A DNA stretch of 64,000 nt from Mytilus trossulus (Eukaryota). The translations under genes and the position numbers were made by a program. How positions within the stretch are numbered: the stretch's first letter is position 1; the number at the start of each line of letters is the position of its first letter. The notes beneath the pieces were generated by a model that made no database searches, was not told where the DNA came from, and saw only the letters and a list, made by a program, of their open reading frames with translations. The stretch is from positions 6,076,001 to 6,140,000 of the forward strand of contig NW_026963290.1 of assembly GCF_036588685.1 (NCBI RefSeq), in the 5' to 3' direction. Shown here in pieces: positions 3,616 through 30,657 of this stretch.

Positions 3616-3931
3616 TATGCACAATGCAATGACGACCTCACATATATCTAATATAAACTATTGTCCCTTCAGTTGCAATAAGATGCAAAGTTAGTTTAAA
3701 CAACCCAAATTTCCATACCACAAAATTGAATTCAATGCGTATAAAATGCATCTACTGCCAAAAAGCAATTTTTGACTACGAGTAAGTAAAGAGAGGTAAA
3801 AGAGACGTTTATGATATGAATCAGTCGCTTGTTACGCTTTGTACCCTTATCATTGTTACTTAAAAATAAAAGATAAATACCATTGTCTTTTTATATAGTC
3901 TATGTTTGGTTTTCTTTACTTTTAAAGAGAT

Positions 3932-6123: not shown

Positions 6124-6172
6124 ATGGATCTAGCTTACTCCTTTATGATTGTTTTTCATATTGCTGCTTTCA
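6124..6172 (+). CDS. Exon 1, signal peptide MDLAYSFMIVFHIAAF
   Basis: ATG plus hydrophobic stretch followed by a strong phase-1 donor GTAAGT, in frame with exon 2. Confidence 0.75.
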
Positions 6173-9100
6173 GTAAGTATAATAATATCGGAGTAATTAG
6201 TCATTTCCAGCAGCATGGGTTTGTTTGAGTTGTAAACACAACTTTTCTGTCCAATTAATTGTTAAGATGAAGTTCGATTTTCTTTTCAAAAGCTAAGGTC
6301 TATCCGCCTATTTGATTTTGTTTATTTGAAAATAACATGGTTATGCACTTTTGTACAGTAGATGTAGAATTGTATCAATGCAATTCAACCGAGGTACGTC
6401 TTAGGTACAAAAGTATTTTCAACCAAATGCAAGTTGTTAAATCACTGTAGGCATTTCCTCAAAACAAATTCTATGACCTCAATGTTTTGCACTTAAGATC
6501 AGATGAATTATTGAAATAAATATTATAATAAATTATATAACATTTTTATACATTATATACGATTATAAACAATTAGAGTTTGTAAGCGACACTTCATTGG
6601 TTTATCATGAGTGAAAACAACTTATTTGTACAAATCGCCTTGTTTCGATGTCGAAGGGACTAGACAAAAGTATTTGACTGATCCGAGGTTCGACTAATCC
6701 GAGATATAGTGTGTCGTCATGAATTGAGAATGCGTGAAATACAGTATGAGAGTTGAGTAAACTAGATACTTCAAAAAGTTTGTCTATTTTCATTTCTTAT
6801 TAAACACACACGTACAGATGAAAAGCAAAATCAATATCCTTCAGAAATATTTAAAAAGGTCAGTCACTATCAATTATGAAATTATCCGTGGAACGAAATA
6901 AATTCTGAATATCCTTATAAGGTCGTTTGCTTTTCAATAAATTATCATGAATAAACATAATTGCTCAAATCCTGCATACACACCTACAGCAAATTTAGTC
7001 AGGTTTATACTGTGCAAACACAATAAAAGGGAGGACAGTAGTTGAAATTTGGTTAGGATTTTACTTCTGCTTATTGAAAAACATGATCTCGAGTAAACAC
7101 GGTCGATATTTAAGAAAATTTTGACAAAACTCATGGTGCCAATTTTACGTGACGGCGAATTTAGTAAATAGTTCTGACGTCGTAAGAGCATTTAATTGAA
7201 AGTCTTTTAATACCGTCTTAAACATGAGAAACGTTTCGACTAGTATTGTGAAAATATTTGGCTGAATTTCAAGATTAAATGTTCGTTACAAAATAAGTCA
7301 TTGTTTGTGATGTCCTATACTTTTGTTAAGATGTTCCTTGTCTATCTAATGTTTTCATGTTGTAACGACTATTGTATCATGTATTTGTTCGTTTCTCTAT
7401 GCTTAGCTGTCTTTCGTTTGTTAGTGCTGTATTGCTGTCACGTAGTGTTGTCATCTTACTGAATTTTCTTAACATTACCTTACGAACGACAGGTTCGGCT
7501 AGCTATAGAACCAGAATCAATTCTACATTTTTTCTGAAAATGTCCTGTACTAATTCAGGAATATGACAGCTGTGATCACATACTCCGATTATCAAACAAT
7601 TCGTTTCTATGTATGTTGGTGGTTGTTTTCGTTGCACTTCAGTGTTTCTGTTGTTACGTTGTTTTCCTTTTAATGTTAGAGTATTTGACGTACATGTATC
7701 AACCTTCAACAAAAAAGCCACAACCAATAGTGTACAGATATACGACACGTAATGCGTAAAAACTTTGTGACCAAATGAGGCATACAGATAAATAGGGTTC
7801 ATAATCGACTATTTGAGAAAGATATGTTTTAAACTCACATTGTTTGTTCTGTAAGTTATCATTTTCTTATATAATTATTCATCTACCAAAGAATCATCAT
7901 GCTGATTTGTAAGGATGTTGAAGGGATGTATTGATATTTTTAAACCAAACTATAGTTCGTTATTTCCTTTTCACTGTTCATTCTAATCTAACAATTGATG
8001 TTTTAATTCATTTCATAGATACATTTGTATTAAAAGTTGATGCAACAGGTTCAGGTACTTCGGCAGATCCTTTTCAACAGTATGCTAAACGAGGACAGGA
8101 GGCAGTTCTACAGTGTACATATGAAAGGGAGTTCCTAAAATGGTACAAAAATGTGACAATTATATCTAATAGGAATTCTGTCATTGATTCTACAAAGTAC
8201 AAAGTATCAGCCACAAGCACTGGTTTGTACTACAGATTACATATACTGAACGTTCACCTCGGTGATAAGGGGATTTACATATGTCGAGGAGGGATAGGTG
8301 AATCATACTACATTCATCTGATTTTATATGGTACGCAGTTGTATACTTATAAATAATAGTATTATAAATCAACCAAATGACATATTTCTCGTACTATGAA
8401 CAACAATATTAAAAAAAATATTTCCGTACTCCTACGAACAAAGTTATTTTATTTATAGTTACCTGCGTACGCCATACTGTCCTAGTTTATATTTGTCCTT
8501 ATGACATTGCTTTTTATATTTTATATCATTTTGTGTCATAGATATAATTTATTTCGTGCTGTGTATGTGTTCTTGTTTTTTTAATATTTCTTATTGATTC
8601 AGTTAAGCATTTCATTTGATATTTCTTTATATATTTTTTTTCTATACTAAGATATACTAAGACATTTAGAATATGCAAATGTTTCAAGTAAGGTTGTCCC
8701 TTAGGTGTAGTTCGTGACCCTGAATTTGTTCAAGTTCAATCGATTTAGGACTATTGTACAGCGATATAATACTTTTGTCGTAATTTAAAGCAATGTGGAC
8801 GAAAATAAAGTCAGAAGAAAATACAAAAGTCAAATAAATTAATCTTGTTCTTTACTTTAGAGCAGCCTTTGCGTTTGACTATACAAAATGCCTCTACAGA
8901 TAACACATTGATTGGAACAGAAGGACATGACCTGCATATTGAATGTGTTGCAGTTCAAGGAATTCCTGTTCCTTTGTTATCCCTTGTAGTACTTGGTACA
9001 ACTGTTCAAACTGACTTCCAGGAATTGCGATACGTTTTGCGAAACATACCTAGAATTTATGATACAACAAATGTATCATGTATAGCAAACAGTTCTGCTT

Positions 9101-12100
9101 TGGATAATCCAATGACAACTACTGCTTTAATATATCTTAATCGTAGGTATCAATATATTTCTATAATAAGTTATGTTGATTTGTCCAATCAATTTTGAAC
9201 AGAATGATTGGTTAAAAAAATAATTTGTTCGCCACAGGAAGAGCTTCAGTAAGACCCTTTTGAACCCAAAATATATCAGTTTTACAAAATTTGTATAATG
9301 TAAACTTTTAGCCAATTTTTAGAATGTTGACTACTTCTGCTTCATAAATATGAAATGTTTTTGACAATATGATGCGCATATATCAGGTACTAGCATCATT
9401 AAGTCATGCTAAATTACTGAAATCTTCGCAATTTTAGTATGGCAGTAAAATTTTAGATTTTTGTCTTAAATGGAAGTGGCCACATTTTTGTTCATTCTTT
9501 GTATTACATGTAAGTTGTATTTGATGATAATACATAACATATATAAAGACTGAGGGTGAACATGGATGCGGCAACATTCATTGTTTTCCCACAAACTAAT
9601 CGAATCGACTGAAGTAGACAAATAAGTGTTTAAAAATGTACAAAATCGTTCTTCATAGGAACCTAATATGTGAGGCCAAAATCGGCCCTTACCAGATCTA
9701 CTCCTTTACATCTTAAGAACCGAGTTCTGGATGTAGATTACTTCTTATAGAGGTTTACGTATAAAAAAAATCAGTGAGAAATAACTATAGAGTATCTTAT
9801 TATGAAACGTGCTACTTCAAATACTTTCAAAGCGGTTTGTGTTTGTACCGGCCGACAAAGCAGCCAGCAATGTAGTTGTGGTATGACGTAAATACTACAC
9901 GGACGTTCTTAAGAATGAAATTATAAATTCATCTACTTTTAAGTCCATCCGCTTCACAGAGATTCATATCGTAAACAAGCATATCACAACCACATCAAAG
10001 CTTAAGGCTTCTTCGTAACATTTGACTACTATAAATTGGCTACCTAAACCAAAAATCATTTAAATATCGTTTCAAATCGGCCTCTAGTAAGTGTTCTACA
10101 ACTTATCTGCCAGTGCTCTTGACTAGTTCATTAACTACTATTAAAGAGCTTATCATAAATTATTGTAATAAAATATATGAACATAGTGGTATAAACCATT
10201 TTTGGAGTCTAAACAATTCTTTGGATGTTTTAGATAAATTGCGGGCTTTTGATGGTCCTTTTGATTCTGTTAATAGTTTTGATTTTTCTACTCTTTACAC
10301 TACACTTCCAAACTATCTTATTAAACAAAAGTTTCCTATTTAATATTTAAATGGTCGTTTGGTAAAGCTGAATGTAGATATATTTGCTGCAACTCATGTA
10401 AAGCCTTCTTCTCTAATAAGAAAGGTGAATATGCTAAATATACTTACTGGAGGTGTGATGAGATGATTGAGGCTGTTAATTTTCTCCTTGATAATATTTA
10501 CTTACGTTTCGGCAACAAAGTTTATCAACAGGTTGTAGGTATCCCCATGGGCACTAATTGTGCCCCTTTAATAGCAGACTTGTTTTTGTACTGTTACGAA
10601 TCACAGTTTATGACTAAACTCAGTTGATAAATTCAACAACACCTACCGTTATCTTGATGTTATTTTTTCGTTAAATAATCAAGAATTTTCTCAATATACT
10701 GCTGAAATTTACCCCAAGGAACTTACTTTAAATAAATCAAATGTATTCGGTAATAACTTCCTTTCCTGGATTTAGATATTTCGGTTTAAACGGGAAACTA
10801 CACACTAAAATTTACGACAAAAGAGATGATTTTTCGTTCCCTATCGTTAATTTTCCATTTTTAGATGGTGATGTTCCTTTGGCACCATCTTACGGTGTTT
10901 ATATTTCAAAACTTGTTCGCTATGCCCGTGTCTGTTGTGACGTTTTTGATTTTAACGAACGCAACCTATGTATATCTGGTAAATTATTAAACCAGGGATA
11001 TCGTTACCATAAATTACTTTAAACCTTTACTAAATTTTTCCTAGATATAAAGATTTGGTTTTGAAGTTTGGTTGTACCTGTAGAAAACTTATTTCAAACG
11101 GGATAGCACATCCTCATTTTTACGGAAATGTTGTTAACCGTGCCCTGAAATTTAGAAATGATCCATGTAAACTTGTTGCTCCTTTAAATAAACTTATTCT
11201 TAAAGGTGACCTATTCAACACTGTGATAAGATCATTGAATATTGTTTTTTTTGGTATAAATATTGACTTTGTTATAAGTAGATTAAAAGCTAACTAATTA
11301 TAACTAGTATGTTATATACATATACATTTTCATGGACTTACAATCTGTCGATACCTGTAACTTGGCATTGCACAAGGTCATGTTTTTCTCTGGCTGTTTA
11401 TAACGTCTTTACACTAAATCCATTGTATGTTGGATGTGTACGGATTGATTGCTTAGTCTTAGAGGCATGATTTTTTTATTAGTTGTTAATGGCTTTGAAC
11501 TAGCTGTCAGATAACTGCGAGTACTCTCAGATCTGTTCATTGTGTCTTTTTATGTCGGGATGTATAAGTACCCGGCCACGTCAACTTTTATGTTTTGTCT
11601 ATCTGATGAGTTAAGCCTTTTCAACTGATTTTTATAGTTCGTTCTTATGTTGTACTGTTAAACCACTGTCCCAGGTTAGGGGGAGGGTTGGGATCCCGCT
11701 AACATGTTTAATCCCGCCACATAATTTATGTATGTGCCTGTCCTAAGTCAGGAGCCTGTAATTCAGTGGTTGTCGTATGTTTATGTGTTACAATTTTGTT
11801 TTCGTTAATTTTTTTTACATAAATAAGGCCGTTAGTTTTCTCGTTTGAATTGTTTTACATTGTTTTATCGGGGCCTTTTATAGCTGACTATATGCGGTAT
11901 GGGCTTTGCTCATTGTTGAAGGCCGTACGGTGACCTATAATTGTTAATGTTTGTGTCATTTTAGTCTTTTGTGGATAGTTGTCTCATTGGCAATCATACC
12001 ACATCTTCTTTTTTTATACATATTCAGATAGAGGTTTTTTTTCTATCCTTACATAGAACACATGCATGCATAGACATATATGAGTATCGATTTTTGTTTA

Positions 12101-15100
12101 AAGTCAAAAATATTCTCATATGTTTTCAATTTCAGTAATGCCTTTGATGCCAGTGTTAAGTGTACCTCTCGTAAATACATTGGAGATGGTTCTATTTTCT
12201 ATATCATGCACATCAACCGGAAGCCGCCCTGCTGCCGCCATTTGGTGGATGATAGGCGAAACTGATGTAACAAATTTAGCATCGTCACAAGAAAAACAAG
12301 GGGTCGATGAGACTTTCACGGTTACATCCACGTTAGAATACACGGTGGACAGAAAATTTAACTTGCAACCGATAATATGTACAGCGAACAATACAATTGG
12401 TGGATTTACCAACCAAATAAACTTGTTCGTAAGATGTAAGTTTTCTCACAATACAGTTCGTTTATTTGATATTTTAAATGTAAAGATTTTATCATACTTT
12501 AAGACCATCCAAATTTGATTCATAATGATGAGTTATTGTAATACATGTTAAAAGCAAAATTGACGAATATAACGTTTTTGCTAAAATAAACAGCCATTAA
12601 ACGGTGACCTGTTGTAGTAAATTTCTGTGTGATTTGGTCTCTGTTGAAGAGTTGTATCGAAATTAAAATAATGTTCCGTTCGATGTCTATGACACAAGTG
12701 TGCTACAAATCTTTACAAGTATAAATGGGTTAAAGCAATTTATTCGAATTTAAAGTAGTTGAACCGAAAACTCTGCAATCGAAAATTGCGTCAAAATGTA
12801 TGTAAAGTGGTGTTATCGGTTCTTTGAACTTGAATTGAATATATTACAGTTCCGCCAGATGTTTCAGTTTATAATGTTACCTATAACATGACAGATCCAA
12901 CACGAACAATAAATTGTACAGCTCATGGTTATCCTGATACATATACATTTTATAAATGGAAGCATAGGTTGTATGGACACATTATTCGGGAACTTGACGG
13001 TGACACTATCTTAACACTGCCTGTGGTTCCTACACAACTTATATATCAAGACAATGGTGAATATGTGTGTATAGTTAGTAATGGTATTCAAGGTACGGAT
13101 GGAAAAGAGAAGCGGCAAGGAGCGGCACAAATTACTGTCTATGGTTATCTATGCTTTGTTGTTATACAATCAATATTACAAATTGAAAACTACTCTCTAA
13201 CGATTGCATGTTTACGTTTGTACTTTATTGAATAACAATGCATTTCATTATATTTAATTTGATGATCATCTAAAACGGAATAGTAATAATAATAACAATC
13301 AACGGTTACAGTTTTCTTGTCGTCCACAACTTCTTTATGTTAAGTAAAAGAAAGTCAAAAGATACAGTTCGAAAACTGACAAACTGACATCATACAAGAC
13401 AAACATCTTCACGGTCTACAACAACAACAAACAAAACTAACATATCACTTGCCTAATTCAACCATCGTTCAAGTTCTTATAGACAATAAGAAAAGTCAGG
13501 GATTGTAGATGAATCGAGGTTAACTTTTTTTAAACACGTTGTGTAATTTCACTTGAATCGCATTAATTGATTGACCTTACATTATACCTGTATGTTCAAA
13601 TTAAAAACTTTTTACCACTTCGATCGGATTAAACTTCAGATTGTCATTTGAGATAAACATGATAAATGCAAGGTAAATAAAGATTACCCATTTGATGTTC
13701 ATTTGTTTGTAGTTCCTAAAGTTCGATTGCGTTATGCTCAATTGTTTTTTTTCTGTGATCATTTTTCCTGGCCTAATAATATGCATGTATAGACCGAACT
13801 GTAAAAAGCTGACTTTCTATTTTGGCTTTTCTGATTTGCTATTTTTTCCCGATCTTAACAAAAAGCTGTTCATGAATATATATTCTTTGAAAATTAGAGG
13901 CAGTAGAAAATTATTGCTATTCAAATCTCATGAGTTTATTAATAAAATACAAAAAATCAATAAGCCTCGTCGCAGGATACTAAATCTTGGCGATTTCGGT
14001 CCTGATAGTATTTGAATTGCATGAAATAATTGCTTTTGCAATAGAAGATTTTTCTAACAATTAAGGATCAGTAACCTATTATAGTGTTTATCCGAAATTT
14101 GCTTTTTTTGATCCGAGGAAAAGAATGCACAAGCTGCAGTTTGTATTGCATCTATTCTTTGGCATTTATTTGCAGAAAGGTAAACACAAATAGAGGATTA
14201 GCAACAATTTAAATCTCTATCATATTTCAATACCTATAAGCATTTTTTATTCGAGCTTGCCGAATGAATATTTTTCACATACTTTTTTTCTAATTTAGCA
14301 CAACCAGTTTTTACTGCAGACAATGACGAAAGGAATATACAGTATGGAGAGATTGGAAAAACTATCGAAATTGTTGTGCATGTGTACAGTGTTCCTAGGT
14401 TCATATACAATGCTTGGTTCAATAATGGAAAACAGATTCAAGCATCTACTAAATATTTTTTTTCGGAATCAACCGTCAAGGTTGAAGATATTTTCCATGG
14501 AAAGACTGTTATGGTTAATGGCTATAAATCGGTTCTTACAATAAATAGTTTAACAAACGAAGACTTCACTAACTACACGTTAATATTAGAAAATGGTATC
14601 GGAAAATCTGTTGAACACACTGTGGTTTTAGAACGATCAAGTAAGACATTATTTATTTACACATTTACAATGAGTATATACGAAAAGGAATTAATGCAGT
14701 TCATAGAATAATAAATGAGGGGGATAGGAGGGGTCCTGATCCCGAAATCCCAGACTTTAAAAAACGAAATCCCGAGGTCCCGACTTTAAATAAAGTAAAT
14801 TCCGAAGTCCCGAAATCCGTAAAAAAGGATTCCCGGATCACAAAAGGGTCAATCCCGAAATCCCGATAAAGGTCATATCAAAAATAAATATAAGCGTTAT
14901 AAATATTCAAAATGAATACAGAGAACAACTGGTATATATAAAAATAAATTGGGAAAAAAAGGAAACACAACAAATGAAAATACTTCTAGTATAAATATAG
15001 CTGTACTATTGAAAAAAGCCATTTATATATATATATATAAAAGTACGTCTGAGTCAGTGACAACCCTACAACAGATGTATCCATCGGATCGCCATCAATG

Positions 15101-18100
15101 ATGGTGATACATGGCTGTGTACATAATGTATATACAACTCGTCTAAACATCAACCCAACAATGTAATGTGTGGTCTAGCGGGACGGCTGCAGTGCAGGCG
15201 ATTTGGTGTCACGATATCGCAGTAGCATGGGTTCGAATCCCGGCGAGGGAAGAACCAAAAATTTACAGATCTAACATTGTTAGGTTGATGTTTAGACGAG
15301 TTGTATATATATATATATATATATGTGTGTGTTTTTGTAAATAGACTAACTGGTTAAGGTTTAAATGATGACTTTATTCAATCGCTCCATTCTTCTGTTA
15401 TTAGGTACTCATAAATCCATGTTTTTTTTAAATATTTGGTCACGGGAAGTAGAATAGCGCATCGGACGCAAACAATTTGTAATGGACATGTATTATAATT
15501 TCCTTATAATAATGTTAAGGATGGTTTCTTAAGTTCACGTAAGGTATCCCCAAGTTTGTTCCGCACATATTTTAAACCTTTGCTGACACATGTTATGCTT
15601 ATTTTTATTTATTTTGTTTTTTTGCCAAGCATTGTCAGTTCATCGTTAATTTATGTCATTGGATAGATGATAGTTGTCGTTACGTATAAATAAAGGGGAT
15701 GTTTTGTTGAAAATGTTTTTATTTTTTAAGCTCCACTAAAACCGGAACCTTCGTCATTAGGGATGATTATTGGTGCTGTGTGTGGAAGTCTGATATCTGG
15801 TCTTGTTTTACTGGCGGTTTTTGTCATTGTAATCCTTAAAAAACGGAAAGGTTAGTCGTGTTGGCTATTATGAAACTTGTAATGCAAATCTATTAAAAAA
15901 ACATAACAAAAATAAAGAACTCCAAGGAAAAACTCAAAACAGAAAGTATCTAATCAATTGGAAAATGTATGCTATTACGCATCAAACTAATGGAAAACAA
16001 CTGTCGTATTCCTAACTTTTTACAGTCACCTATTTCATTATGTATAAAATGATGAATTAAACCCAGGTACATGAGTCATTATACGAAAATCTGACGTGTA
16101 AAAACAATTCACTTTTACTTAATTCCGTCCCTATTCATTTATAACCACATTAACAATATTAAAACCGGTACGCTTCAAAGTGGCGGAAAAAATCAGAAAA
16201 AACGAAAAATGAAGCAGTGGTTGGCACTAGCACGGTTAGAAATACCTTCGGCAGCACAAAATATCAATTCAGTATTTTGGTGTGGTTTGTGTTTCTCAGT
16301 ATTTTGCTTTCTATGTAGTGTTTTGTGAATTTTTTTTTGATTGCCTTTAATTTGTCTTTCGTTTTTTCTGCCATGGCGTTTTAAGATGTTCTCTACTTTT
16401 GCTTCTATATATATTCTTATACAGTTAATAATATCTATACACGAATAAATATGTAAGAAAGACACACTTGTATCAATAAGATAAAATTCTGATATTCAAG
16501 TGAAATTAGAATTGTTGGTGTTGATGTTATTTTTCTTTCGTCTTTTACTTGTACATTAAAAAAAATCAATTTAGACAACCTTTCTAAATAATTTCAATTA
16601 CCATGATAAAGTCGAAAGCTCATAACGCATGACCTTAATCTTTACAGATAAGGATTGCAAAACAAACTAGTAAAAGTGTTTACATTTAAAATAATAGAGA
16701 TTCATATGTATTCGAGATTAATTTTATCATGCTTTTTTTTTAAAAAGAAATCAATGAATGGGGTGCCCCAATTTGTGTCGATTACATCGGATCTGGAAGA
16801 AATATATTTTTGTAGTATTTCTAAAGTTTATCTTACAACTTTCATCGTTGTGTCGTTATTTCCGGTGTTGAAATGCCAGTATCCGAAGACAAGACACGCG
16901 TTTTGTGAAGCTCGAAGCAGATATCTCGAATAAAGGAGAAATTTTGTTCCGTCATAATTTTTTAGAAATTAAGATATATGAATGAGAAAATTACATCGAT
17001 CTTTTACATAAGTTTTTTGTATTGTTTTAGGGCATCAACAATGCGAAAAGTAAGTACATATTTAAAATAACAAATGTTGAATAAAATGTCAAACATTGTA
17101 GGCAAATTCAAACCGTAGATGTAATCTGCCGACAAAGTCATACAATTGCTACATGTATCATGATGCCTAAAAAATTACGTTGCCTTATTCAGTTCATTAG
17201 TTTTGGTAGCGATGTCGTTGCCGCTACGTTATAGTAAACATTCAAAAACTGAACTTTTATAATTTCAGATAATACTGCATCAAAGACACAAATCATCAGA
17301 AAATATGATACATTTTGTTTGTCTTTTGAATCCCCATATAGTTACAGAAAAAAAAGGATTCACATCCACATTCATTAAAGTGCACCTGTTTTATTGTAGT
17401 AGATTTGTTTTATTCTATGTTTAACTGTGTATGTAACGTATAATAATATGTTTTAGAAATTAAAAATGTCAAAATCTACTTAAATATCTTTTGAACATAT
17501 TTAGCACAGTAACTTTTGAAAAGACTGATTCTGATGATCACGCAAACGGTTATGAAGAAGTACAAAACAGCAGGGAAACACAAAATGGTATGATTAAAAT
17601 TAACAAATGTAAAAAATATTAAAACAATCAATTATTTTGATTAAAAAGGCAAAAAATCGTATACGCAACTTATCTATAAATATTGAATCATTGAATCACA
17701 TGCACAGTGTACGATAGACAAATTAATTATTATTGGATCTAGAACTACAAGTCGGATATAACATTTGCTCACATCATTTAATAATGAAACGTATATTACA
17801 CATCCATTAATGTACAAACAAGGTGCAATAAATACATCCACACTGGATCAAGGATACAAAGCTTCTAATTTGGAAAGAGTGGTACAAATCTTATCACTAC
17901 TGTAGGAAGCAGTCACATTTGTTTATTGGATAAAGAATCTGGAACTGCAGACGACTTTGGCTTACATTTTATTTTCTATTTTTTGTTGTATTCATTGTTT
18001 GTTCAGCATGACTAAGCATTTCGAGGCACTTGCTGTGCAAGATGTCCCAAAAGCTTATGACAGTTTGAGTAAAGAATTTGAGACCAATTTCAGATGCATC

Positions 18101-21100
18101 AATATTTCTAAAAATGATTGAAACACAATTTGCTCTGCTTATTTAGAATTTATTTACTAGATCACCATAAAAAAATCAATGTATATGATTTAGCATTTAT
18201 TCAAAATAAAAAAGCATTATATTTCTTGTGCTAAAAATGATTAAATTAAATGTAATAACTATACTTTGAATTTGCACGTTCTTCTCTGTGTCGGCTGTTA
18301 CTTTAATATCTGAGATAACGAGTACAGATTGACATACTGAACACATTAATGTAGTCTTTCCAGTTCGAGACACTTCATTTCCTTAATAAGTTGCCTCTGA
18401 TTGATGATTGAATGCTTTAATTTGATTGTTCAAATGCTTTTTACTAAATATTGCATATTATCTGGTTCGTACCACTGAGTTCTTTTATTCAAGCAACCAC
18501 GCATGTTGTATAAATTTTGCAGTTTTTTAAATTTGTTTTGTTTTTTACAGCTCAACATGTAAACAGGGATCTAAGGTATAATACTATTGTATAAAATATT
18601 ATATTGCTCATTCTAATGCAATTTGTTTGTAACGATAATTTTCATTGGACGTTGATAAATATTTTGAGGGGTTGAATTCCGCGTTCTACCAGTCCGTAAC
18701 TAAGAAAGCCACCATTTTGAATTCCGATTTTTTGTGGGATATGTAATTTCTCAAAAAATAAACAAGATTGTCACTTTTTGAGCCTCAAAATCTTCTTTTT
18801 GTCTATATTGAAACTATTCTGAAGCGTACGAAAAGAAAAAAATACGTTTAGTTTTCACGTTTGAAATGCAGAGTATACTTATGACGTCATATTGTTTAGA
18901 TGCTAAAGACGATGCAACAGTTTCGCCGACTTTTTCATTTCTGGCATTGTTAAGCCAAAATATTTATTAAATGAAATTTATTTTAATATGTGGCATTAGA
19001 ATGGAAATAACAATATTGTATTTTAAGCTTAGCCTTCGTAAAACTTGATTTTACTGTCGCAAACATCCGTTTACCTATCTCCGCTCTGCGTCGCTAGGTA
19101 AACTCAATTTGCGACAGTAAAATCGACGTTTTTCGAAAGCCAAGCTTAAAATACAATACAGTTATCTCCTAATTCGTATGATGATTTTTGTCTATTTGAA
19201 ATGCTTGAAAAACGGCTTCCATGTTGAAATCTGTGAATAAAGTAAGATTTTGTGTGATTCTTTGTTTTGTTCACAAATTGGTATCCATATAATGGAATTT
19301 TGTACGACTGTCATACAAGTGTTTGGTTAAGTTCTCTATAAAACAAGGTGTAATCCACAGTTTTCGACAGTAGAAAAGCGCTGTACCAAGCCAGGAGTAT
19401 GACAATTGTTGTCAATTCATTTGAGCTTTTATGTTTGTCATTTGATTAATTAGGGACTTTCAAAATTGAATTTTCATCGGAGTTCAGTTTTTAATGATTT
19501 TACTTGATACCGCTGTTCAAAGGTCAAAAATTGATTCAGAGAAAACAAATCAAGATTATAAACTAAAAATCGAGGAAAACAAATCAACTATACAAAGAGG
19601 ACAACAGCGAAACAATAGAACACACTGGTTGTAACAAAAAACAGTTTTCTGTCTATATCCCTTTCAGGTAGGCTCCAGACAAATTCATCCTCATTTGATG
19701 GAAAAATACTAAGATATCAAACGGTTCAATATTATACAGTTATGTGAATATAAAAATTTGAGCAAGGTCAAATAAAAAAAATATCGAACCAAAGTCAACA
19801 GATAATTTCAAACACTTAGAGAAATAAAATATGGATAAGAACATCTTTCTCCTTATTCTTAATTTAATTTAAGAATTGAAACCTTCAATAGACTTTGACA
19901 CATTCCCCATTTCCATACTCAATTTCTATTAAATACATGTGTTACATTTCTATTCAGTTTTCTCGTATTGATGATATTCAGTCAATATAGAAGCATATGT
20001 TGTTCTACAGAAAGGCAAACATGTTGATATTTATTTTATTTATTTTACAGTCATTCAAGAAATTACGAAAAACTTGGATTAAAAGATGCCCCTAATGTTT
20101 ATGAAGATTTAACTAATAAAGGTGATTTCACGTGTATCACTATGAAATTTGTTAATACAAAATATATCATTTACAAGAAAGAAAATAATACATACAATAA
20201 AGAGGTTACTTTGATAGGTTGATGCATATATTACCGTTAAATGTCATGTGGGAATTATATTACAAATTCAGAACAAGAACATGAGTATGTGATAGTTAAG
20301 ATTGACCAGGCTTTGAACTAATCCGATACACTGAGCCGGAAGTATAACGTTCAATGACACCCTAACCAAGCGAAAATGTGAAGCGCCTTCTACTGATTGC
20401 TTTTCAAAGAATGATAATTATTTTTAAAGACTAAAGAAGTTAGAACCCGATACAATCCAAATTCCAGGCATGCACGCTCCTACAAAAGACTGTGGCAGTT
20501 AGGTAACTAATAGAGGAAACATTACTGAAATCCTATTGCAGGCCAATTCCCATTAAATTTCTTATTCTTTCTAGCACTTTTCCAACAATCAATTTGCGCG
20601 CGAGCACTAACATTGGTGTATTTCCATCATTCAATAGAATATTAAAGGTAGAACAAGACGTATTGTAAACATTGGCATATTTAGTTTTAGTTAAACCTGC
20701 ATTTGATATTATTTCTTTCATTTTACAGAATCAAAGGAAATAGAAGGTCAAAGGTATTTTCTATATCGATAGATTTTTTAAAATAATAAGTTTTGAAACT
20801 TTTGATATTTGTGTAAATAAAGATGAACATGTTTTATCCTATGCTCTCTGAGTTAAAATTATTTCTTGTGTTTATAAATATCATTGTAATAAACTAAGTA
20901 CCAGAATATGACGATAAACAGCTGGAAAGACATTATAAATATATTATGTATACTACACTTTATATCACAAATTATCTATGTTATATTCTATTTCAAAATA
21001 AACGTGTTGCTGTTGCAGCACAACAAGACATTATGATGCACTTGGAAAGAAAGAGGTACCTAATGTTTATGACGAGTTGAACAATGAAGGTAATGTGACT

Positions 21101-24100
21101 ATATATGCTTCAATTTATAACAAAATAAATAAACAAGTAATAATCGTGACTAACGTTATGTAAAACAAAACAAAAAGCAAAAAAAAGGGCATTAGTCGGA
21201 CTAGACAGAACAAGTTATTGTATTTCTTAAACCAGTCAGAAGGTCAATTTATCAATTAAAAAGATTCATGGTTAAATTTCATAAATGATGATGTTTAACA
21301 ACAAACTATAACTGTGTAGTAATATTTTGCACTGAAATATTAATTTTGTATATATTTACAGCACAATATGAAAACAGATCTCAAAGGTATTTAGATTTGA
21401 TATGGAATTAATGTTTTGTTTATTTAAAAAAAAAATAACTTAGCAATACATATTTCATACTTATATAAAAAAATCGCAGACACTAGTGCTGAATCTTCAA
21501 AATATTGTTTTGAATTTGATGGATTGATATTTAAACAGACAGTCAGTTTTCAGATGGGTATTTATTCCCCCCTAGTAGCCGTTTTATTTGTTGTAAATTA
21601 GTAAGAATAATTCAAACAAATTATTCTCTAATATGAAAAGAACAAAATATCTTGCAAATTATTTAATTGAAATTAGGAATTTGACCAAAACAAGAAGCTC
21701 AGTTTCATATCTTGATATTTTCCGCGATGATGAGACATATGAAAGACTTAAAACTAAAATATATAACAAACCTGATGAGTTCAGTGACATTGTAACTATG
21801 GTCTTCATATGTGTGCAATGATACGATACCATCGTGCAATTTCACACTTTACATTTTAATACAGTTAATAATAAAAAACTACTAACATCGGCAATAATAA
21901 GTTTTACGGTTCCGTCGAGAATTACATATAGGAGTTAAAGCTTATCATGTCGACGAACTCACTGTCTTTTTAGAGTTCATGCTATTCTTTAGTTTTGTTT
22001 AACATGTTTAAGACCCTGAATCCTATCTTTATTTATCTATGAAATTTCCTCATTGGTTAATTACTTTTGTCTTTATGTCCAGCTCTAGAAACCATTATGA
22101 AGATCTTGGTCAAAAGAACGCAGCTTATGTTTATGACGATTTAAAAAGTGAAGGTAAGACGATTTTCGGATTAATTGAAACCATAAAGTCATGATAAATG
22201 TAAATTGAAACTGCTCATGCAGCAAATAAAAACAGAACGATTTATATTGTTTTGGAGTTATACTTTGGCAATGGAAGCGGGAAAAAAACCACACTATATA
22301 CAGGATTGATAATGACTTGACTCGTCTTGTACATATACCATAAAATTGTTATTACACATTATATGTGAATTTTAGTAAGCGCTTTAAACAGGACAATTTT
22401 GGTCTTATATTAGTTTTTTCACCAATTAACTTTGGTAGTTGTAATCTTACTTTTATTCATTACAGCTTGTGAAGAAACCAAAGCTAATAGGTAATATTTT
22501 TTTAATTAATTCTTTTGAAAGAATATCTTTTATTTTTGCAAAAAAATATTCAGTATGAACAAAAGTTAATGTAGTTTTCAAAGGTTAACAATTCGAACCA
22601 GAAATATCTGTTCTCGATTATCTAAAATATATCCATTCTTTATCGAAAGAAAAGAGGGATGAAACATACCTGAGAGACAGTTAACTCATAGATAGAAAAA
22701 TAAACTGATAATACCAAGGCTAAAAACAAAAAGACAAACACACAAATAATAGTACACAAGACACAACATAGAAATCTTATCTAAGCAACACGAACCCCAC
22801 CAAAACTGATCTCAGGTGCACCAGATGGTATGCAGATCCTGCTCCATATGTAACACCCTCCTGTTATTACAAACCCATTATATAGTCTAATTCAGTAGGT
22901 CACATTCGTCGTGATAAGGGAAGTGGATTGTAGATACGACAAACGCAACGTATCCGATATCATATGTGAAACGGTTAATCTATAACGGTCAACCAACTCG
23001 CGAAGAAATCTACCATTTAAGTGATCAAATTAGTATATATATATAGTGTGGTTGCATAATTATATCTGATTTCAATGAAAACATATCTTAATCTTACATT
23101 TTAGCCCGACACAACATTATGAGGACCTTGGTGTGAAAAGCAACCAAACTGTATATGATCATTTAATAAATGAGGGTGAGTCAACTTTGAAAATGTTTTT
23201 TTTATTTCTAAAACCAATTAAAACAAAAAATGTAATTGATAGAAACCATTGTATAAATAAATAAAAAGATGTTTACATTTGAAATAATATATACAACTGT
23301 CATTTAAGTAAGTCTGCAGTTTAATATATAAAAAAAACTTTAGGAAAATCAAGAATTTACATCACTAATCAGTTTGGATTACAATTAAAGAAGATTTATT
23401 ATATTTAGCCACTAAAATAAATCATGATTTGCTTATCGTTTTTATTATTTGTTTATTATTTGAAACCGTTTCAATTCTTCCGCTGATTCGGCCACACCAA
23501 TTTAATTTCTTGTACTACGGATTTTGGAATCCAAAAATGGGGCGAGCGAGCGATTTTAAAATTTTAATAAACAAATATTCAATTTTAAAATTTTTGAGGC
23601 GAAGCTAGAAAAGTAAAGGCGAGCGATTATAACTGTTTTTGGTAAACATAAAATAGTAGATTTTGACAATATTAAAACTTGATTTATTACATGTACTTTG
23701 ACATTTCTTTAATCAATGAAGTATTTTTCCCTGTATATTAAGAAATAATTGAATAATTAAATCTTATCAATTCATACATGTATGTCAGAATGTGTGACTG
23801 ACAATGAGACAATTCTCCATCCAAGTAAATAAAGGCAAAAGTAGTATACCGCTGTTCAAAACTCATAAATCCATGGACAAAAAACAAAATCGGGGTAACA
23901 AACTAAAATCGAGGGAAACGCATTAAATATAAGAGGAGAACAACGACATAATACCGAAACGTAACACACACAGAAACGGACCAAGCATCAGTCAAAACAC
24001 CACGAGAATAACAAATATAACATGAAAACCAAATACATGAATTTGGGATGGACAAGTACCGTGCCACGTCTTATCTCAATATCTCAAAAATAAGAGAAAA

Positions 24101-26200
24101 CACAAACGACTCAACGTTAAAATTCAACACACACATAAACGAACAATAATATAACAATGGCCATCTTCCTGACTTGGTACAGGACACTTTTAAAGGGGAA
24201 TAAAAGTGTTGGGTTGAACCTGGTTTTGTGGCATGCCAAACCTCGGAAATCAGGTTCCATACTTTTAAAAGGCCACTTTATGAATCTTATGTTAAAATTC
24301 ATGTATGTTCCGTCTACCTGAGGCTATTCATATTCATGTTTCTGATTTATAAGTTGCACTTTTAGCACAAATGTGGACTTGGAAAATTAAAATCGGTTGA
24401 AACTTGGTTTTCTGGAGGGGTGGGCTTCACATATGTGTCTTACACAGGAAGCTCAGAGGCATAAAACTTACTTTTAAAATAGTGTAAACCCAAGCCCATA
24501 TCACTACTGATCGTTATTATTAGTGACATATGCATAGGAAACGACTACTTCCGATTTCAGGTTCTTTTAAAGTAAAAAATTCGCCAAATCGTGAAATTCC
24601 GTATTTTTGGTCCAAATGACCTTTTGTATTCTGCTGAACCAAGATCAGATTCACTCCCACCTAACAACTATTGGTGTCAATTTGTTAACTAGGGCCCACT
24701 CTACATGCCGGCTACAGCTGGATACCTTTACCAGCACCCGTAAGTCTTCTGGGTCAAGATAAAGGACGAAAAGTCGTCAAAATTGATGCTTTTTGCACCT
24801 GTTGAACAACTTTGGGGCATATTTTTGCAAATAACCGAAAATTATACATTTTCTGAAAACAATTCAGCATGGTAGGGGTTAAATGGTGAAAACATGTCGA
24901 AGAATTTTGTAATATTTTTGGACTTTAACCATGTTAACACATTTACTTTAACAGTTTAATATTATTTATTAAGTAATTGGACCCCTCTTTTAGAATACTT
25001 GTTTAAAATATTATGTATTTCTCCTCTTTTTGAGTAAAAAATTCTAAGTTTTCAAAGGTTTTTGCTACTATACAAATCTTTTGAATTTCCATTTTCTTTT
25101 CTACAATAGTAAAATGACCCCTTGTCAGAGGAAGGGTTGTTCCCAACCTTATACTAACAAACACAGGTCAAAGTACGGCCTTTTATACAGGGCTTTGATC
25201 CAGACAAAATAGCAAACTCTAAGGGACCATATAATTATTAGTATTCACAATTTGAACAGGAAAACCAACGATCTAATTTCTACTAAACGGGAAAATACCA
25301 ATGAACAACATCATGCACATCAACAAACGATAACTGCCGAATAACATACCCTGAATCAATCAGGACAGGTGCATACACATGCGGCGGCTACGGATATGTT
25401 TGTTTCGCCAGCATACAAAATAATTGCAGTTGAAGGCAAATCATTTAGAAGTTCTTTGTACTTTATTCTAACAACGACAACAACGAACATTTTTCAACAG
25501 GGAATATAAGTAAGAGGGAAAGAAATCAATTTTTTGTTCTGTAGGCTACAGGTATTTCCGCTGTTATATATTTATTTCGGAGCACGCCCACTTGGGATAA
25601 ATTGGTTTCATGCTGAAACAAAAATTCTCACAGATATTTACATGGTGTGTTTGGGTGCTTATAGGTTTAAAATCGTTATATACAGGTTAGACTGTGATTT
25701 TAAAAACAAATGTTGATATCTTTGTATAATATTTACAAAAAAAACGGTTCGGGAAATTTACATGATTACATTTCCGGATGCGGGGTTATAAAAAAAAAAA
25801 AACGGTTTTGAAAAAATAGGTGCGGGCGGGTCCGTCGAACAAGGTATCAAATTGGTGTGGCCTAAAGATGCAACTACCTCAGAAAAGTTTCAACTGATCG
25901 AGTTCCAAACCTTTGGAAAGAACGATATATACATTTTCAAACTGTATAGCGGATTTCCTGAATTTTCACCAACCTGCAAAATAATTATATATTTTATAAT
26001 TTTGTTAAATCGGTTAATTTACATAAACAAAGGTCGACAAGACTCTATGTAATGTGACGGCGAATACATCTTTCTAATACAATTTACTCAAAATTTGGCA
26101 AAGAAAGTTTAAGATTGTTAAATGTCATGTTATATATATTTCAGACGCTGTAAATAAAGTGTATGAAAACGCTTCAAAACAATGGACACAGGAAAACTGA
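6124..26200 (+). CDS. 18-exon immunoglobulin-superfamily type I membrane receptor (signal peptide, 5 Ig-like domains, TM, cytoplasmic tail with 4 ITAM-like motifs), ~746 aa
   Basis: Manual join 6124-6172, 8019-8330, 8861-9142, 12136-12435, 12850-13143, 14299-14640, 15731-15850, 17031-17049, 17505-17587, 18551-18575, 20051-20121, 20729-20753, 21019-21089, 21362-21386, 22083-22153, 22466-22490, 23105-23175, 26145-26200. Total 2241 nt, all introns GT-AG, phases compatible, no internal stop. Confidence 0.88.
8019..8330 (+). CDS. Exon 2, Ig domain 1 (V/I-set like)
   Basis: AVLQC...LKWYK...LHILNV...DKGIYIC motif; tttcatag acceptor; phase 1-1. Confidence 0.92.
8861..9142 (+). CDS. Exon 3, Ig domain 2 (C2-like)
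   Basis: EGHDLHIECVAVQGIPVP...NVSCIANS; phase 1-1, AG/GT bounded. Confidence 0.9.
9830..12015 (+). mobile_element. 5'-truncated, decayed Penelope-like retroelement (RT domain plus 3' non-coding region) in intron 3
   Basis: Frameshifted RT motifs: PADKAASN, SFDFSTLYTTLP, QVVGIPMGTNCAPLIADLFL, YRYLDV, TKIYDKRDDFSFPIVNFPFL, SYGVYISKLVRYARVC. The ORF ends at 11297 with no C-terminal GIY-YIG, which fits the Naiad/Chlamys arrangement (endonuclease N-terminal); that assignment is inferred. Confidence 0.85.
12136..12435 (+). CDS. Exon 4, Ig domain 3 (nephrin/sidestep-like C-type)
   Basis: ISCTSTGSRPAAAIWW...TVTSTLEY...IICTANN; GTAAGT donor; phase 1-1. Confidence 0.92.
12850..13143 (+). CDS. Exon 5, Ig domain 4
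   Basis: FPPDV...INCTAHGYP...KWKH...QDNGEYVCIVSNGI; phase 1-1. Confidence 0.92.
14299..14640 (+). CDS. Exon 6, membrane-proximal Ig-like domain 5 lacking cysteines
   Basis: QPVF...VYSVP...AWFNNG...SVLTINSLTNEDFTNYTLILENGIG; GTAAGA donor; phase 1-1. Confidence 0.9.
15131..15307 (+). mobile_element. tRNA-like (A box/B box) core enclosed by 34-bp inverted repeats, part of an insert within a (TA)n tract (~15025-15325)
   Basis: TGGTCTAGCGG and GGTTCGAATCC lie between arms 15131-15164 and 15274-15307 (33/34 complementary). Confidence 0.65.
15731..15850 (+). CDS. Exon 7, transmembrane helix and stop-transfer
   Basis: PLKPEPSSLGMIIGAVCGSLISGLVLLAVFVIVILKKRK; phase 1-1; GTTAGT donor. Confidence 0.92.
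17031..17587 (+). CDS. Exons 8 (17031-17049) and 9 (17505-17587): juxtamembrane module with a single tyrosine motif GYEEV
   Basis: GHQQCE-N-TVTFEKTDSDDHANGYEEVQNSRETQN; phases 1-2 then 2-1; donors GTAAGT and GTATGA. Confidence 0.75.
18551..20121 (+). CDS. ITAM module A1: exon 10 (18551-18575) and exon 11 (20051-20121)
   Basis: AQHVNRDL-S-HSRNYEKLGLKDAPNVYEDLTNK; 25 + 71 nt. Confidence 0.85.
18996..19173. mobile_element. Fold-back (hairpin) MITE
   Basis: Long imperfect palindrome, e.g. TATTGTATTTTAAGCTT...GATTTTACTGTCGCAAA / TTTGCGACAGTAAAATC...AAGCTTAAAATACAATA. Confidence 0.7.
20729..21089 (+). CDS. ITAM module A2: exon 12 (20729-20753) and exon 13 (21019-21089)
   Basis: ESKEIEGQ-S-TTRHYDALGKKEVPNVYDELNNE; 25 + 71 nt. 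Confidence 0.88.
21362..22153 (+). CDS. ITAM module A3: exon 14 (21362-21386) and exon 15 (22083-22153)
   Basis: AQYENRSQ-S-SRNHYEDLGQKNAAYVYDDLKSE; 25 + 71 nt. Confidence 0.88.
21500..21850 (+). mobile_element. Ancient Penelope-like RT relic in intron 14 (paralogous relic at ~33480-33810)
   Basis: Degenerate FEFDGLIFKQTVSFQMG and SVSYLDI...LKTKIYNKPDEFS, resembling the RT at 10500-10860. Confidence 0.6.
22466..23175 (+). CDS. ITAM module A4: exon 16 (22466-22490) and exon 17 (23105-23175)
   Basis: ACEETKAN-S-PTQHYEDLGVKSNQTVYDHLINE; 25 + 71 nt. Confidence 0.88.
22650..23005 (-). mobile_element. 3'-end fragment of a second Penelope-like family (related copies at ~29385-29735 and ~34259-34572 on -, and 46031-46408 on +)
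   Basis: Shared GATCTCAGGTG...GCAGATCCTGCTCCA block; reverse complement of the 46031-46408 copy. Confidence 0.65.
23490..25862. mobile_element. TIR element (Harbinger-like ends) with nested repeats, in intron 17 of tail A only
   Basis: GGCCACACCAATTT at 23490 and AAATTGGTGTGGCC|TAA ending at 25862; absent from the paralogous intron of tail B. Confidence 0.65.
26145..26200 (+). CDS. Exon 18, terminal coding exon of tail A: DAVNKVYENASKQWTQEN*
   Basis: tttcag acceptor, phase 1, TGA at 26198-26200; paralog at 36128. Confidence 0.8.
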
Positions 26201-26664: not shown

Positions 26665-26670
26665 AATAAA
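26665..26670 (+). terminator. Candidate poly(A) signal of tail A
   Basis: AATAAA near the end of the 3' UTR homology block; the paralogous position in tail B is ATTAAA (36650-36655). Confidence 0.5.
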
Positions 26671-26831
26671 AGTTGGAAAGTTACTTATCTTGGAAAAAGA
26701 AATATAAAAAACAAAAAGAGACTTAGCAGTAAAGGTTAAACTTTACAAAGACAACACAAGGAAACTTTTATTCAGATGAAAAACGTCAGTACCTAGGACC
26801 ATCATGCATCAAATGTGAAATAGATACGAAC

Positions 26832-27243
26832 TAGGGTTGGCAACGAGTACTCGAGTGCTCGGGTACTCGATCGGAAGGTCGAGTAATTTTAAGTCCAATA
26901 TTGTTTGTTGACAAATTAATTAAAAAGTCATATCATAAAAAAACCTAACTCCCTAGGAACAGATGCTACATATATTGTCTACCTTGTCGGAAAATATTTT
27001 GATTTTATTTGAATTTGTTAATTCGGTAATTCATTGTTTAATTGACTAAAAAAAAACAGAGGAGCAAGCTATGTGTGTAGTACGTTTGTCTTATGTTTAT
27101 GAAAGGTAATAACAAAAAGACTGCATCACACCTAAAATCTAAACTTTTCAATAGACGTTGAAGATTCATCCGAGTACTGGCGAGTACTCGAGTATCTTGA
27201 CCTAGTATCCGAGTATTAAATCTCAGATTTTTTGACATCCCTA
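26832..27243. mobile_element. hAT-like MITE
   Basis: TAGGG...CCCTA ends with subterminal CGAGTACTCG repeats; the 8-bp TSD is only partially matched. Confidence 0.5.
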
Positions 27244-30200
27244 CAAAGAACATTTTAATCATCATCGTACAGAAATCGTCCCAAGAATTTTTCTATGAAA
27301 AGTACCGAAAATTCTCTGAAATAACCTTCTTGCTCACCAACGTTCTGCCCAGACACTGATAACGTTTTGTATAGTCTGAAAACAGAAACAAAAAAATTGA
27401 GAAACTAAAATCTAAAACTATAGTAAAGAAAACGAGATATTCAGCACAATGAACCTAACAAAGAGGTTTGCACGTACTCCTGAAGGGTCAACAGTTCCTG
27501 TTTCACTCGCATGATCTGTCGCATCTAACTTGTTCAATAACCAACATCCGATATCATATTGATATATAGTATAACAAACAGACTTAATCAAACTAATCCA
27601 ATAATATTTCATAAACAATTCTTGTAGTTATTGTCCATTTGATGTGGTTTATCATTTGCTTTTGCCATTTGAATAGGGACTTTCCGTTTTGAATTTTTCT
27701 TGGAGTTGAAGTTTTGTTGTGATTGTACTATTTTTTGGAGTATGCTTCTTTCAATCTACTTTCAATTTAATTTTAGATTTTTTTTTGCAATGGTTATGTA
27801 GTTACTTTACACGCTGGAACTTTATATACATGGTTAGGACTTAAATTCTTGAGATATGTCGGGCAGCTTGCAATCCTTTTTTTTGTGTCGATACATTATT
27901 GTTTTATACTAAAGATACAATACAAGTATGTTTACTGTTCTAAAATTTGAGAAAAAAATACAAATTATGTAATGAACAATTGATACATTAATTTAAGTAA
28001 TATTTCTTAATTATAAAAGATCTCAACATACAAAAAAATATGGACGTTTGTAATATAATGACATTGTCAGTTTGTCCTTGGTTTTTAAAGTTACGAATTT
28101 CCCTTGGTTTCTTTTGTCTTAAATCTTCAAATTTGTAATGTTATGTTTAAAGATTTAAGAGAAACCACCATTAGTCTCAGTTTTAAATATTGTCTATCCT
28201 CTCACAGGTCAGGAAGTAAAAACAGAAAAAAACATTCATAACAAGATGACAGGAAATGTCATTGTTTCGTTAAAAGAATATTAAGTGACGACAATAAATT
28301 TGTATATATTCATTTCTCTAAATAAAAACGATTGTTAAAATTTTCTTCCTGTTATCTTATTGACACTCTTGAATATCTTATTAAATACAATATTAAGTAT
28401 TTCAAGTGTTTACAAAACGATGTTAAAACTATTGTGTTTCTAATATTTTCTATAATGGTCTTTCCTTTACGAAAATGTCAATTGAAACAAGGAAAACAAT
28501 GATCATATAATTGAAAACTACGTTCAAACATATGATTGCATATATATATATAAATGAGACGACTTTTAATACCCACAGTAAACACGAACAATCATTGTTA
28601 CGACCATTTTTGTAAAAGAGGGATGCAAGATACCGAAGGGACAGTCAACTTTTCTGTTTATGTTACATTCAAATCATCCAAGACAAATTAAGTTTGTTGT
28701 AATCCTTTGCGTATTTGTTATCACAACTAAGGATTAATCACAGATCAAAGTACACGGCAGATATCATAATGTTTGTTTTTGTTTGTTGAGATGGGAATAT
28801 TTTATTCGAAAAAATATCACACATTCTAATTACTAGAGAAAAAAATACTGCTTACTTTTCGTTAAGGTGAACATCTTCCTGATAATAAATTAAATCATTT
28901 CGTTGTCTTTCGACGAATATTTTGTTTTGTTCTGCTATAAGAAGTAAATCATAGTTACCACTACTTTTATAACAAAAGGTCAAAGACCATTTGAGTTTTT
29001 ACTATTCATGTGGAATTTGTTTGTTATTTGGCAACGTTTAGTTGAAAATATGTAAATTAATGTGGAACAAGACAAACAAACTATCTTGGGCCTTTCAAGG
29101 GGAAGATTATGCATTTGTTAATTAATCAATCTGAAACATATGACATTCAAACTTACGACGGAATCAAATATTGGATACAATACAAAGAATGCTCTCTTCC
29201 TTACCTGAAATTTAATATACTACTGTTTCATCGGCATACTGTCATATTTCTTCTCGTTTATTTTTTTGTGGTATTAAAAAGTTCCTGTCTTTAACAATAT
29301 ACTTCACGAAATACATTGAAACAGAAGATATATTGGGACTTTATCATGTTTGGTACTTCTTTTGTTCTGTTTTAAATTGGCACCACCAGAGGGACATTCC
29401 TAGATCGAAAAAAAAAATGACAACTTCATGGCTGAAAAAGAAAAAGACAAACAGATAAACAATAGTACACACGACGAAAAATAGAAAACTTAAGACTAAG
29501 CAACATGAACCACACAAAAATGGGAGAGGGTGATCTCAGGTGTTCCAGAAGAGTGGGTAGATCCTGGATCCGTCGTGTTGCTCATATTATTAAAAACCCG
29601 GTAAAAAGTATAGTTCGGTAGGTCACAATTGTGAAAAGGGAACGGGATTGTCGTTAAGACATCATGACCATATCCGATATTATCTGTGAAACTGATATTC
29701 CATAACGGTCAACAAACTTGTGATGGCATCCGTAAATACTTGCAATTATTCTGCAGAAGCTTAGATTGCAACTTCTACGAAAAAATATGTACAAAAACCG
29801 CGTTTATGTAGCGACATGTATCAGTTATAATAACAAAAATATCATTTCCTCTAAATAAAATTCTTATCTTTTGTGGGTTGTCCTTTGTGGTCTCATATTC
29901 TTGGGAGTATTGTTGTATTTTGATTTATTATATGTGGAGGCATATTTGATTTTTTTAGGGTAACAGCGAAGCACATGTATCTAAAATGTGTGTTTCTATG
30001 TATGTTGCATTGTCGATTGGTTTTTACTACACTTCGATGTTCTGTTGATGCGTTGTTTTCCTCCAATAGTTGATGTGTTTTCCTCGGTTTTGTAACCTGT
30101 ATCGGAGTTCAGCATTTTAGTGATTTTACTTTATACCGCTGTTAAAAAGTCAGTAATCGATTGAGAGAAAACAAATCTGGGTTACAAACTTGAAATCAAG

Positions 30201-30657
30201 GGGAAAACACCAACTATAAAAAGAGGACAACAACGAAACAACAGAAAACACTGATTGATACAAAAACAAACGTCGAGCTTTAATGTTTCTATCTGTACCT
30301 TTCTGGTCCGGACAAATTCATCTTCATTTGATATAGAAATCTAAGATATATCACGGTTAAATTTAAAAATAGTTATGTGGCTATAAGAATTTGAGCAAGG
30401 CGAAATAATAAACAAATATCGAACCAAAGTCAACAGATGAGTGCAAACACTTAGAGAAAAAAAACTAAGATAAGAAGAACATCTTTCTCCCTAATTTGAA
30501 TTTAAGAATTATACATAAAACCCACATTGAACTTCAATACATGTGTTACATTTTTTATTCATTTATTTTCATATTTATGATATTCAGTCAATACAGAAGC
30601 ATATATTTGTACTACAGAAATGGAAACGTGTTGATATTTATTTTATTTATGTTACAG

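Follow-up and report, generated by a model that had tools for sequence, protein, structure and literature searches.

In a stretch of 64,000 nucleotides (nt) from the mussel Mytilus trossulus (GCF_036588685.1, contig NW_026963290.1, positions 6,076,001-6,140,000 of the forward strand; hereafter the window, whose own numbering we use unless another locus is given), we analyzed a gene that is predicted to encode a mussel single-pass receptor with five immunoglobulin (Ig) domains and a transmembrane (TM) segment. Its cytoplasmic tail carries motifs of the type known as ITAMs (immunoreceptor tyrosine-based activation motifs). We consider it probable that this tail was assembled from tandem two-exon units that have been gained and lost between gene copies, likely setting the strength of a signal that likely passes through a Syk-type kinase. 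The architecture itself is real, and motif number has varied in evolution; adjustment of that number by splicing is not shown. Judged from the sequence, what we describe is a well-supported architecture and not a new mechanism.

The gene lies on the plus strand, as do all features of the window given below, and was modeled by reading the window and scoring splice sites. The resulting open model has 18 exons and 746 amino acids (signal exon, five Ig-sized exons, TM exon, ten small exons for the tail and the terminal exon). From Ig1 to the stop, the RefSeq M. trossulus protein XP_063416831.1 (P0001; other P numbers denote further database homologs) is identical to this joined model, and it provides an independent match for every tail exon. 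We designate short tail exons s and long tail exons L. Between 18551 and 23175, eight exons bounded by AG and GT alternate between 25 nt (phase 1 to 2) and 71 nt (phase 2 to 1), making four pairs: s1 (18551-18575, module b) and L1 (20051-20121, with the ITAM-like YEKL-x8-YEDL); s2 (20729-20753) and L2 (21019-21089, module c, YDAL-x8-YDEL); s3 (21362-21386) and L3 (22083-22153, YEDL-x8-YDDL); and s4 (22466-22490) and L4 (23105-23175, YEDL-x8-YDHL). A terminal coding exon with a VYEN motif and the stop (26145-26200) completes the tail, and a polyadenylation-type signal AATAAA stands at 26665. Exons s1 and terminal come from splice-site scoring and occur in P0001, while L1 through s4 are in the model and also in spliced contigs. 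L4 is in the model, and the loose end of a contig past 22490 reads L4.

The initial annotation, made from the sequence alone, had described a strict 25/71 alternation over the whole of 17031-23175. This description holds for the four pairs above, but not for the first pair, which measures 19+83 nt. Both members were found by splice-site scoring: s0 (17031-17049, 19 nt, phase 1 to 2), for which a joint 17049>17508 occurs in contig run X2 (see below), and L0 (17505-17587, 83 nt, phase 2 to 1), which has a single YEEV. With s0 and L0 included, the alternation is strict in phase and not in length. L0 is possibly an eroded module (FEKT-x8-YEEV); its core matches the ITAM cores at 22-29 of 48 nt, with shuffle fractions of 0.0001-0.09.

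To gauge exon homology, we used 10,000 shuffles. Compared two at a time, the 71-nt exons agree at 42-50 of 71 nt, where shuffling gives 20 on average and 34 at most, which supports the earlier proposal that the tail originated through tandem duplication of an exon pair. The 25-nt exons agree at 11-18 of 25 (shuffled mean 8, 95th percentile 11). It had also been claimed that skipping any adjacent pair removes exactly one ITAM in frame. In silico, this is true of all seven adjacent pairs in the 25/71 run, but not of s0+L0 or L0+s1, whose removal costs no ITAM. The companion claim, that skipping a single exon shifts the frame, was borne out for each of the ten tail exons.

All four 71-nt exons contain a complete YxxL-x8-YxxL, as the initial annotation had stated. 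The spacer of 8 residues lies within the gap of 6-9 residues between two YxxL/I given for the ITAM consensus (PMC9546547; here and below, papers are cited for what the accessible parts of their text state). The motifs follow in frame behind the TM exon (15731-15850), which places them on the cytoplasmic side. At the biochemical level, an ITAM is further defined by being phosphorylated on both tyrosines and by binding the tandem SH2 domains of Syk/Shark. In the eight live 71-nt exons of this gene (copy A) and of a duplicate downstream (copy B, described below), neither the residues Y, L, Y, L nor their spacing of 8 residues varies. Vertebrate ITAMs are described as divided by an intron that interrupts the first YxxL (PMC4536121, PMC2110893), whereas each mussel motif lies whole in one exon. 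The layout is thus unlike that of vertebrate ITAM genes, as previously noted, and an independent origin of the mussel tail is therefore likely.

Comparing module counts between paralogs, a check that the initial annotation had put forward, shows that they differ: ITAM number across paralogs is 2-5, and full-tail database homologs have 3-5 canonical motifs each. One loss is visible within the gene itself. At 18007-18077 there is a dead 71-nt ITAM exon (module a) with an intact acceptor, a first Tyr changed to Phe and a lost donor, which the initial annotation did not mention. In the upstream paralog (G000:C15:6051159-6072072) the module-a exon is live, and the dead exon matches it at 53 of 71 nt. 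The 25-nt partner of the dead exon is gone, in that about 1.9 kb of the upstream paralog's intron, with the short exon inside it, has no counterpart here (the alignment of the left flank is gappy). Module a is live in P0002, P0004, P0008 and others, and is spliced in contigs of related mussels. The upstream paralog, in turn, has kept s2 and lacks the offset pair L2+s3 in its DNA. A unit has phase 1 at both its start and its end, so the frame would survive if an adjacent pair were duplicated, deleted or silenced, while loss of a single exon would truncate everything downstream; the pairwise pattern of the losses would be accounted for in this way. As a separate observation, P0011 (M. edulis RefSeq) stops a few residues past the TM segment without any tyrosine motif, and is a candidate decoy receptor.

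Using database proteins as guides, we also mapped the tails of five distant paralogs. Four of these, on chromosome 6 (C6), have exons of 80-16-74-19-74(-19-74) nt with 2-3 motifs, some ending in YxxM. The fifth (C15) has two 74-nt exons and one spacer that was not pinned down. The short exons of these paralogs are predictions, chosen by protein match among many noise candidates. Further paralogs were fetched at C6:21.44 Mb, C6:21.74 Mb, C7 (two) and C9; the tail maps are those of the five named above. On this evidence the phase plan appears to be family-wide, the 25/71 lengths being those of one clade. More distantly, 14 of the 55 homologs with a TM segment and a tail carry the motif, one of them three times; those with species names are from Mytilus, scallops and freshwater mussels. 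A homolog search with the tail alone returned 9 proteins, all of the same Mytilus clade, so that within 402-1280 amino acids the cassette is not seen joined to other ectodomains. Searching the DNA with a pattern for the ends of ITAM exons yielded 8 matches against 1 for the control, and 6 of the 8 fall within this cluster.

At G000:C6:20876790-20890849 (minus strand) a three-ITAM tail has no Ig or TM exons upstream, and adjoining it, at G000:C6:20915422-20935817 (plus strand), is a head from Ig1 to TM for which no tail was found. This separation looks like a paralog broken by inversion or misassembly. A paralog on C7 has an ITAM-like exon with a stop within the second motif (G000:C7:45544129-45544221).

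The closest functional model is CgIgR of the Pacific oyster (PMC6994640), which we liken to the mussel gene by its described architecture and not as an ortholog. It too is a single-pass bivalve receptor with five Ig domains, a TM segment and an ITAM in its own tail, and the mussel gene has the corresponding parts: five Ig-sized exons of phase 1-1 (four with Pfam Ig matches), a TM exon and an ITAM tail. CgIgR is reported to have one ITAM (PMC6994640), in contrast to four in the mussel gene and up to five in its relatives. CgIgR binds CgSyk (PMC6994640), and an oyster Syk has been described (PMC13344425). The CgIgR type is further defined by expression in hemocytes, binding of bacteria and dimerization. 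By analogy, we infer the following course for the mussel receptor: the divergent N-terminal Ig domain would bind a ligand and the receptor would cluster, a Src-type kinase would phosphorylate the motifs, a tandem-SH2 Syk would dock, and motif number would set signal strength. Splicing would likely act only at the last module, where skipping a single exon would drop one ITAM together with the terminal VYEN, leaving a stop that would escape decay.

Our evidence on splicing comes from two contig runs (two samples of one study, from related mussels, with no tissue on record), which we guess to be RNA and which contained 0.05-0.07 of the words queried. Such contigs are evidence of presence only: rare forms are dropped, so the absence of a joint carries no meaning. 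Of the ten joints listed in the two runs, nine are at predicted exon ends and eight link exons that are consecutive. One contig of 411 nt resembles this gene closely, with 1-5 differences in each long exon, and reads L1-s2-L2-s3-L3. The joint L3-s4 occurs at the same depth, with a loose end behind s4 that reads L4. The only joint type that jumps exons is L1-s2-L3, which is present in both runs. We rejected it as a skip in this gene: 9-10 of the approximately 73 L3 letters in these contigs differ from this gene, their s2 resembles the P0007/P0013 paralog class, and the DNA of this genome contains a paralog with that layout. We therefore read these contigs as transcripts of paralogs. An apparent joint from L3 to the terminal exon was likewise rejected as a skip for a 1238-nt contig, in which 96 letters intervene; a second contig was not resolvable. 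No pair skip within one gene was seen in the two runs, contigs being prone to drop rare forms.

Database isoforms provide a second view, in the form of eight pairs (six Mytilus and two Potamilus). The tail differs in two of the eight, both from Mytilus, and none of the six Mytilus pairs differs by an in-frame exon pair. Isoform X2 of the M. californianus relative has the end expected if only the last 25-nt exon (s4) were skipped, and isoform X2 of the M. galloprovincialis relative has the end expected if only the last 71-nt exon (L4) were skipped; the isoforms are database models, and we matched them with the corresponding skips predicted for this gene. Neither X2 isoform retains the last ITAM or the terminal VYEN. 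Decay in mammals follows a 50-nt rule. In this gene, a lone skip of s4 or L4 would put the stop 39 nt ahead of the final junction or inside the last exon, so under that rule these stops would escape decay. The isoforms that change the tail are thus single-exon frameshift skips of the last module, an event that the initial annotation had treated as a dead end.

The initial annotation had assigned this gene two terminal exons; the second (36128) is instead part of a separate, headless copy, copy B. A duplicate of the tail, from L1 on, lies at 30101-36700, with exons L1b (30658-728), s2b (31316-340), L2b (31635-705), s3b (32683-707), L3b (34162-232), s4b (34848-872), L4b (35133-203) and a terminal exon at 36128 whose stop comes five codons earlier than in copy A. 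The gene's upstream region (3131-4067) is also duplicated, at 27966-28870. Copy B has no signal, Ig, TM or s1 exons, about 15 kb of the head being missing, and no s1-like 25-nt exon that would link it upstream was found in 26700-30600. All of its tail exons have open frames and undamaged splice sites. The 1238-nt contig of run X1 includes a B-like s2, L3 end and s4 together with an s1 of its own and 255 or more letters upstream; because it has upstream exons of its own, the B type of gene appears to be whole in another mussel. The reading that fits copy B best is a paralog that has recently lost its head, or else an assembly error, and not an alternative end.

It is important to emphasize that several observations weigh against our favored explanation. 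The ITAM consensus is described as having D/E(/N) at the third position ahead of the first Tyr (PMC4536121, PMC6994640), and this residue is missing in all four motifs, which have S, T, R and T at that position. None of the four exons matches the Pfam ITAM family at E<=1, although the queries were only 23 amino acids long. The retrieved proteins, 148 new distant matches among them, do not contain the CgIgR motif. In the tree of Ig3-TM, 8 of the 11 inner branches are open, so that gains and losses can be neither counted nor given a direction. Our DNA-level check covers the paralogs in the M. trossulus assembly, and the module-less models of other species stand at database level. Finally, in P0013 (a GenBank model) L3 is joined in frame to the terminal exon, with s4+L4 missing, and this joint may be a pair skip.

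The last point bears on an explanation that had been offered initially, in which cells skip adjacent pairs in frame and so obtain 0-4 ITAMs from one gene. Each adjacent pair of the run is frame-neutral and holds one motif, the L1-s2-L3 joint jumps a pair in both runs, and ITAM content is reported to be altered by splicing in Penaeus and Daphnia Dscam, Draper, Hydractinia Alr1A and Botryllus FcoR. However, duplication alone predicts frame neutrality, and such duplications need it to survive, so it is not evidence for regulated skipping. The L1-s2-L3 contigs fit a paralog of that build in M. trossulus DNA, the one resolvable joint from L3 to the terminal exon contains additional letters, and P0013 is a poor model because it lacks the TM segment too. 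The Mytilus isoform pairs likewise show no in-frame difference, and the variation that we did find is genomic. We therefore consider pair skipping improbable. Somewhat similarly unlikely, in our view, is that the gene encodes an adhesion or neural Ig protein whose tyrosines are single-SH2 docking sites or endocytosis signals, their number drifting with little effect. The automatic names of the homologs (NCAM-like, irreC-roughest-like, nephrin-like) would fit this idea, as would the missing acidic residue and Pfam match, the loss of Tyr or Leu in several paralog motifs, and a ratio of nonsynonymous to synonymous substitution (dN/dS) of 0.62 between the tails of A and B over 133 codons. Such drift is hard to reconcile with the invariance of the paired motif in the live exons of both copies and its presence in scallop and freshwater-mussel relatives. 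Tandem birth and death and a divergent Ig1 also suit immune receptors, for which CgIgR (PMC6994640) is a precedent.

Copy B might alternatively extend copy A, with read-through splicing (L4 to s2b or s4 to L1b) yielding a 7-ITAM receptor with a second terminal exon. The phases fit, and the open exons of B lie on the same strand, 4.5 kb past the stop of A. However, B also duplicates the upstream region, which makes it a whole-gene copy minus the head, and the B-like contig of run X1 has its own s1 and upstream letters. In addition, A has its own AATAAA, and the RefSeq model ends at A's terminal exon. We regard read-through as very improbable. A combined scheme, in which one cassette is tuned at three levels (paralogs or haplotypes with 2-5 ITAMs, regulated pair skipping, and read-through into copy B giving up to 7), has in our estimation only a slim chance of being correct. 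The gain and loss of units between gene copies remains the explanation that we prefer.

ITAMs of invertebrates and their splicing are already known. Our searches, confined to open-access literature, turned up neither this mussel family nor an array of ITAMs on tandem exon pairs, and PMC10514466, PMC12943528 and PMC3544630 yielded nothing relevant. The vertebrate adaptors CD3, CD79, FcR-gamma, DAP12 and TCR-zeta share the paired YxxL and the presence of several ITAMs per chain (PMC4536121, PMC8416054). TCR-zeta has three ITAMs and splice variants of its tail, and FcR-gamma of X. laevis gains a second ITAM via an extra exon (PMC4536121, PMC8416054). These adaptors have a negative residue in the TM helix, whereas the translated mussel TM helix has no charged residue at all. 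The ITAM-bearing CEACAMs are also expanded Ig receptors with tails of tiny exons, and their ITAMs have been lost through decay of a splice donor or a frameshifting single-exon skip (PMC2110893). Unlike the mussel gene, they are described as having one ITAM, split by a phase-0 intron, and no repeated module (PMC2110893). Outside vertebrates, ITAM or hemITAM tails that are changed by splicing have been reported for Dscam (PMC6851185), Draper (PMC13148388), Hydractinia Alr (10.1101/2022.03.25.485889, PMC9546547) and Botryllus FcoR (PMC12582321), the modes being exon skipping, frameshift and alternative ends (PMC6851185, PMC13148388, PMC9546547, PMC12582321). Alr1 genes also have the ITAM within one exon (10.1101/2022.03.25.485889), as in the mussel. 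As described, these systems make on/off changes or swap ITAMs for inhibitory motifs (ITIMs), in contrast to the tandem homologous exon pairs of the mussel, whose number varies by paralog.

The number of ITAMs per receptor is described as a studied variable in T-cell and chimeric antigen receptor (CAR) signaling. The bivalve family forms a natural series in which a chain has 2-5 motifs, exceeding the three of TCR-zeta, on an exon plan unlike that of vertebrates, with one module caught dying and one gene copy caught losing its head. The series would allow a test of whether Syk output in an invertebrate is graded by the number of motifs, and of whether tails of this kind had independent origins. 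If the three-level scheme were true, it would amount to a natural graded code of ITAM multiplicity in an animal without adaptive immunity.

The head of the receptor begins with a first coding exon encoding a predicted signal peptide (6124-6172), an ATG..GT exon in frame with Ig1. Its N-terminus resembles that of M. galloprovincialis P0009, and the start of P0001 differs. The five Ig-sized exons, all of phase 1-1, span 8019-14640, and four of the five match Pfam Ig families. Ig domain 1 (8019-8330) is divergent between paralogs, with Pfam Ig matches under the curated cut-off. Ig-like domain 2 (8861-9142) is in frame and conserved in homologs without a Pfam match. Ig domain 3 is of the C2-set (12136-12435; PF08205, E 1.3e-10), Ig domain 4 matches Ig_3 (12850-13143; E 1.6e-4), and Ig domain 5 (14299-14640) matches Ig_3/I-set and is 100% identical to P0001. 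The joint from Ig5 to the TM exon is present in contigs of related mussels. Between this gene and its tandem neighbor, the upstream paralog, Ig1 is 25% identical and Ig3-5 are approximately 80% identical. Two very different types of Ig1 (8019-8330, and G000:C15:6053127-6053486) thus occur on otherwise similar receptors, and both are found across Mytilus species. This pattern suggests domain swapping or ligand-driven divergence.

The sequence CAGGAAGT, which we take to be an ETS-like site, has been kept in the upstream regions of both copies (3360-3380 and 28205-28220). Elsewhere in the window, a 355-bp unit is present in 4.7 near-identical tandem copies (55643-57321) and a 571-bp segment is duplicated at 99% (51688-53140); it is possible that both are recent satellite sequence or an assembly artifact. 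In the intron between Ig2 and Ig3, a degenerate stretch (10136-11300) resembles, by reading only, a decayed reverse-transcriptase retroelement, and has a 66% copy upstream in the contig.

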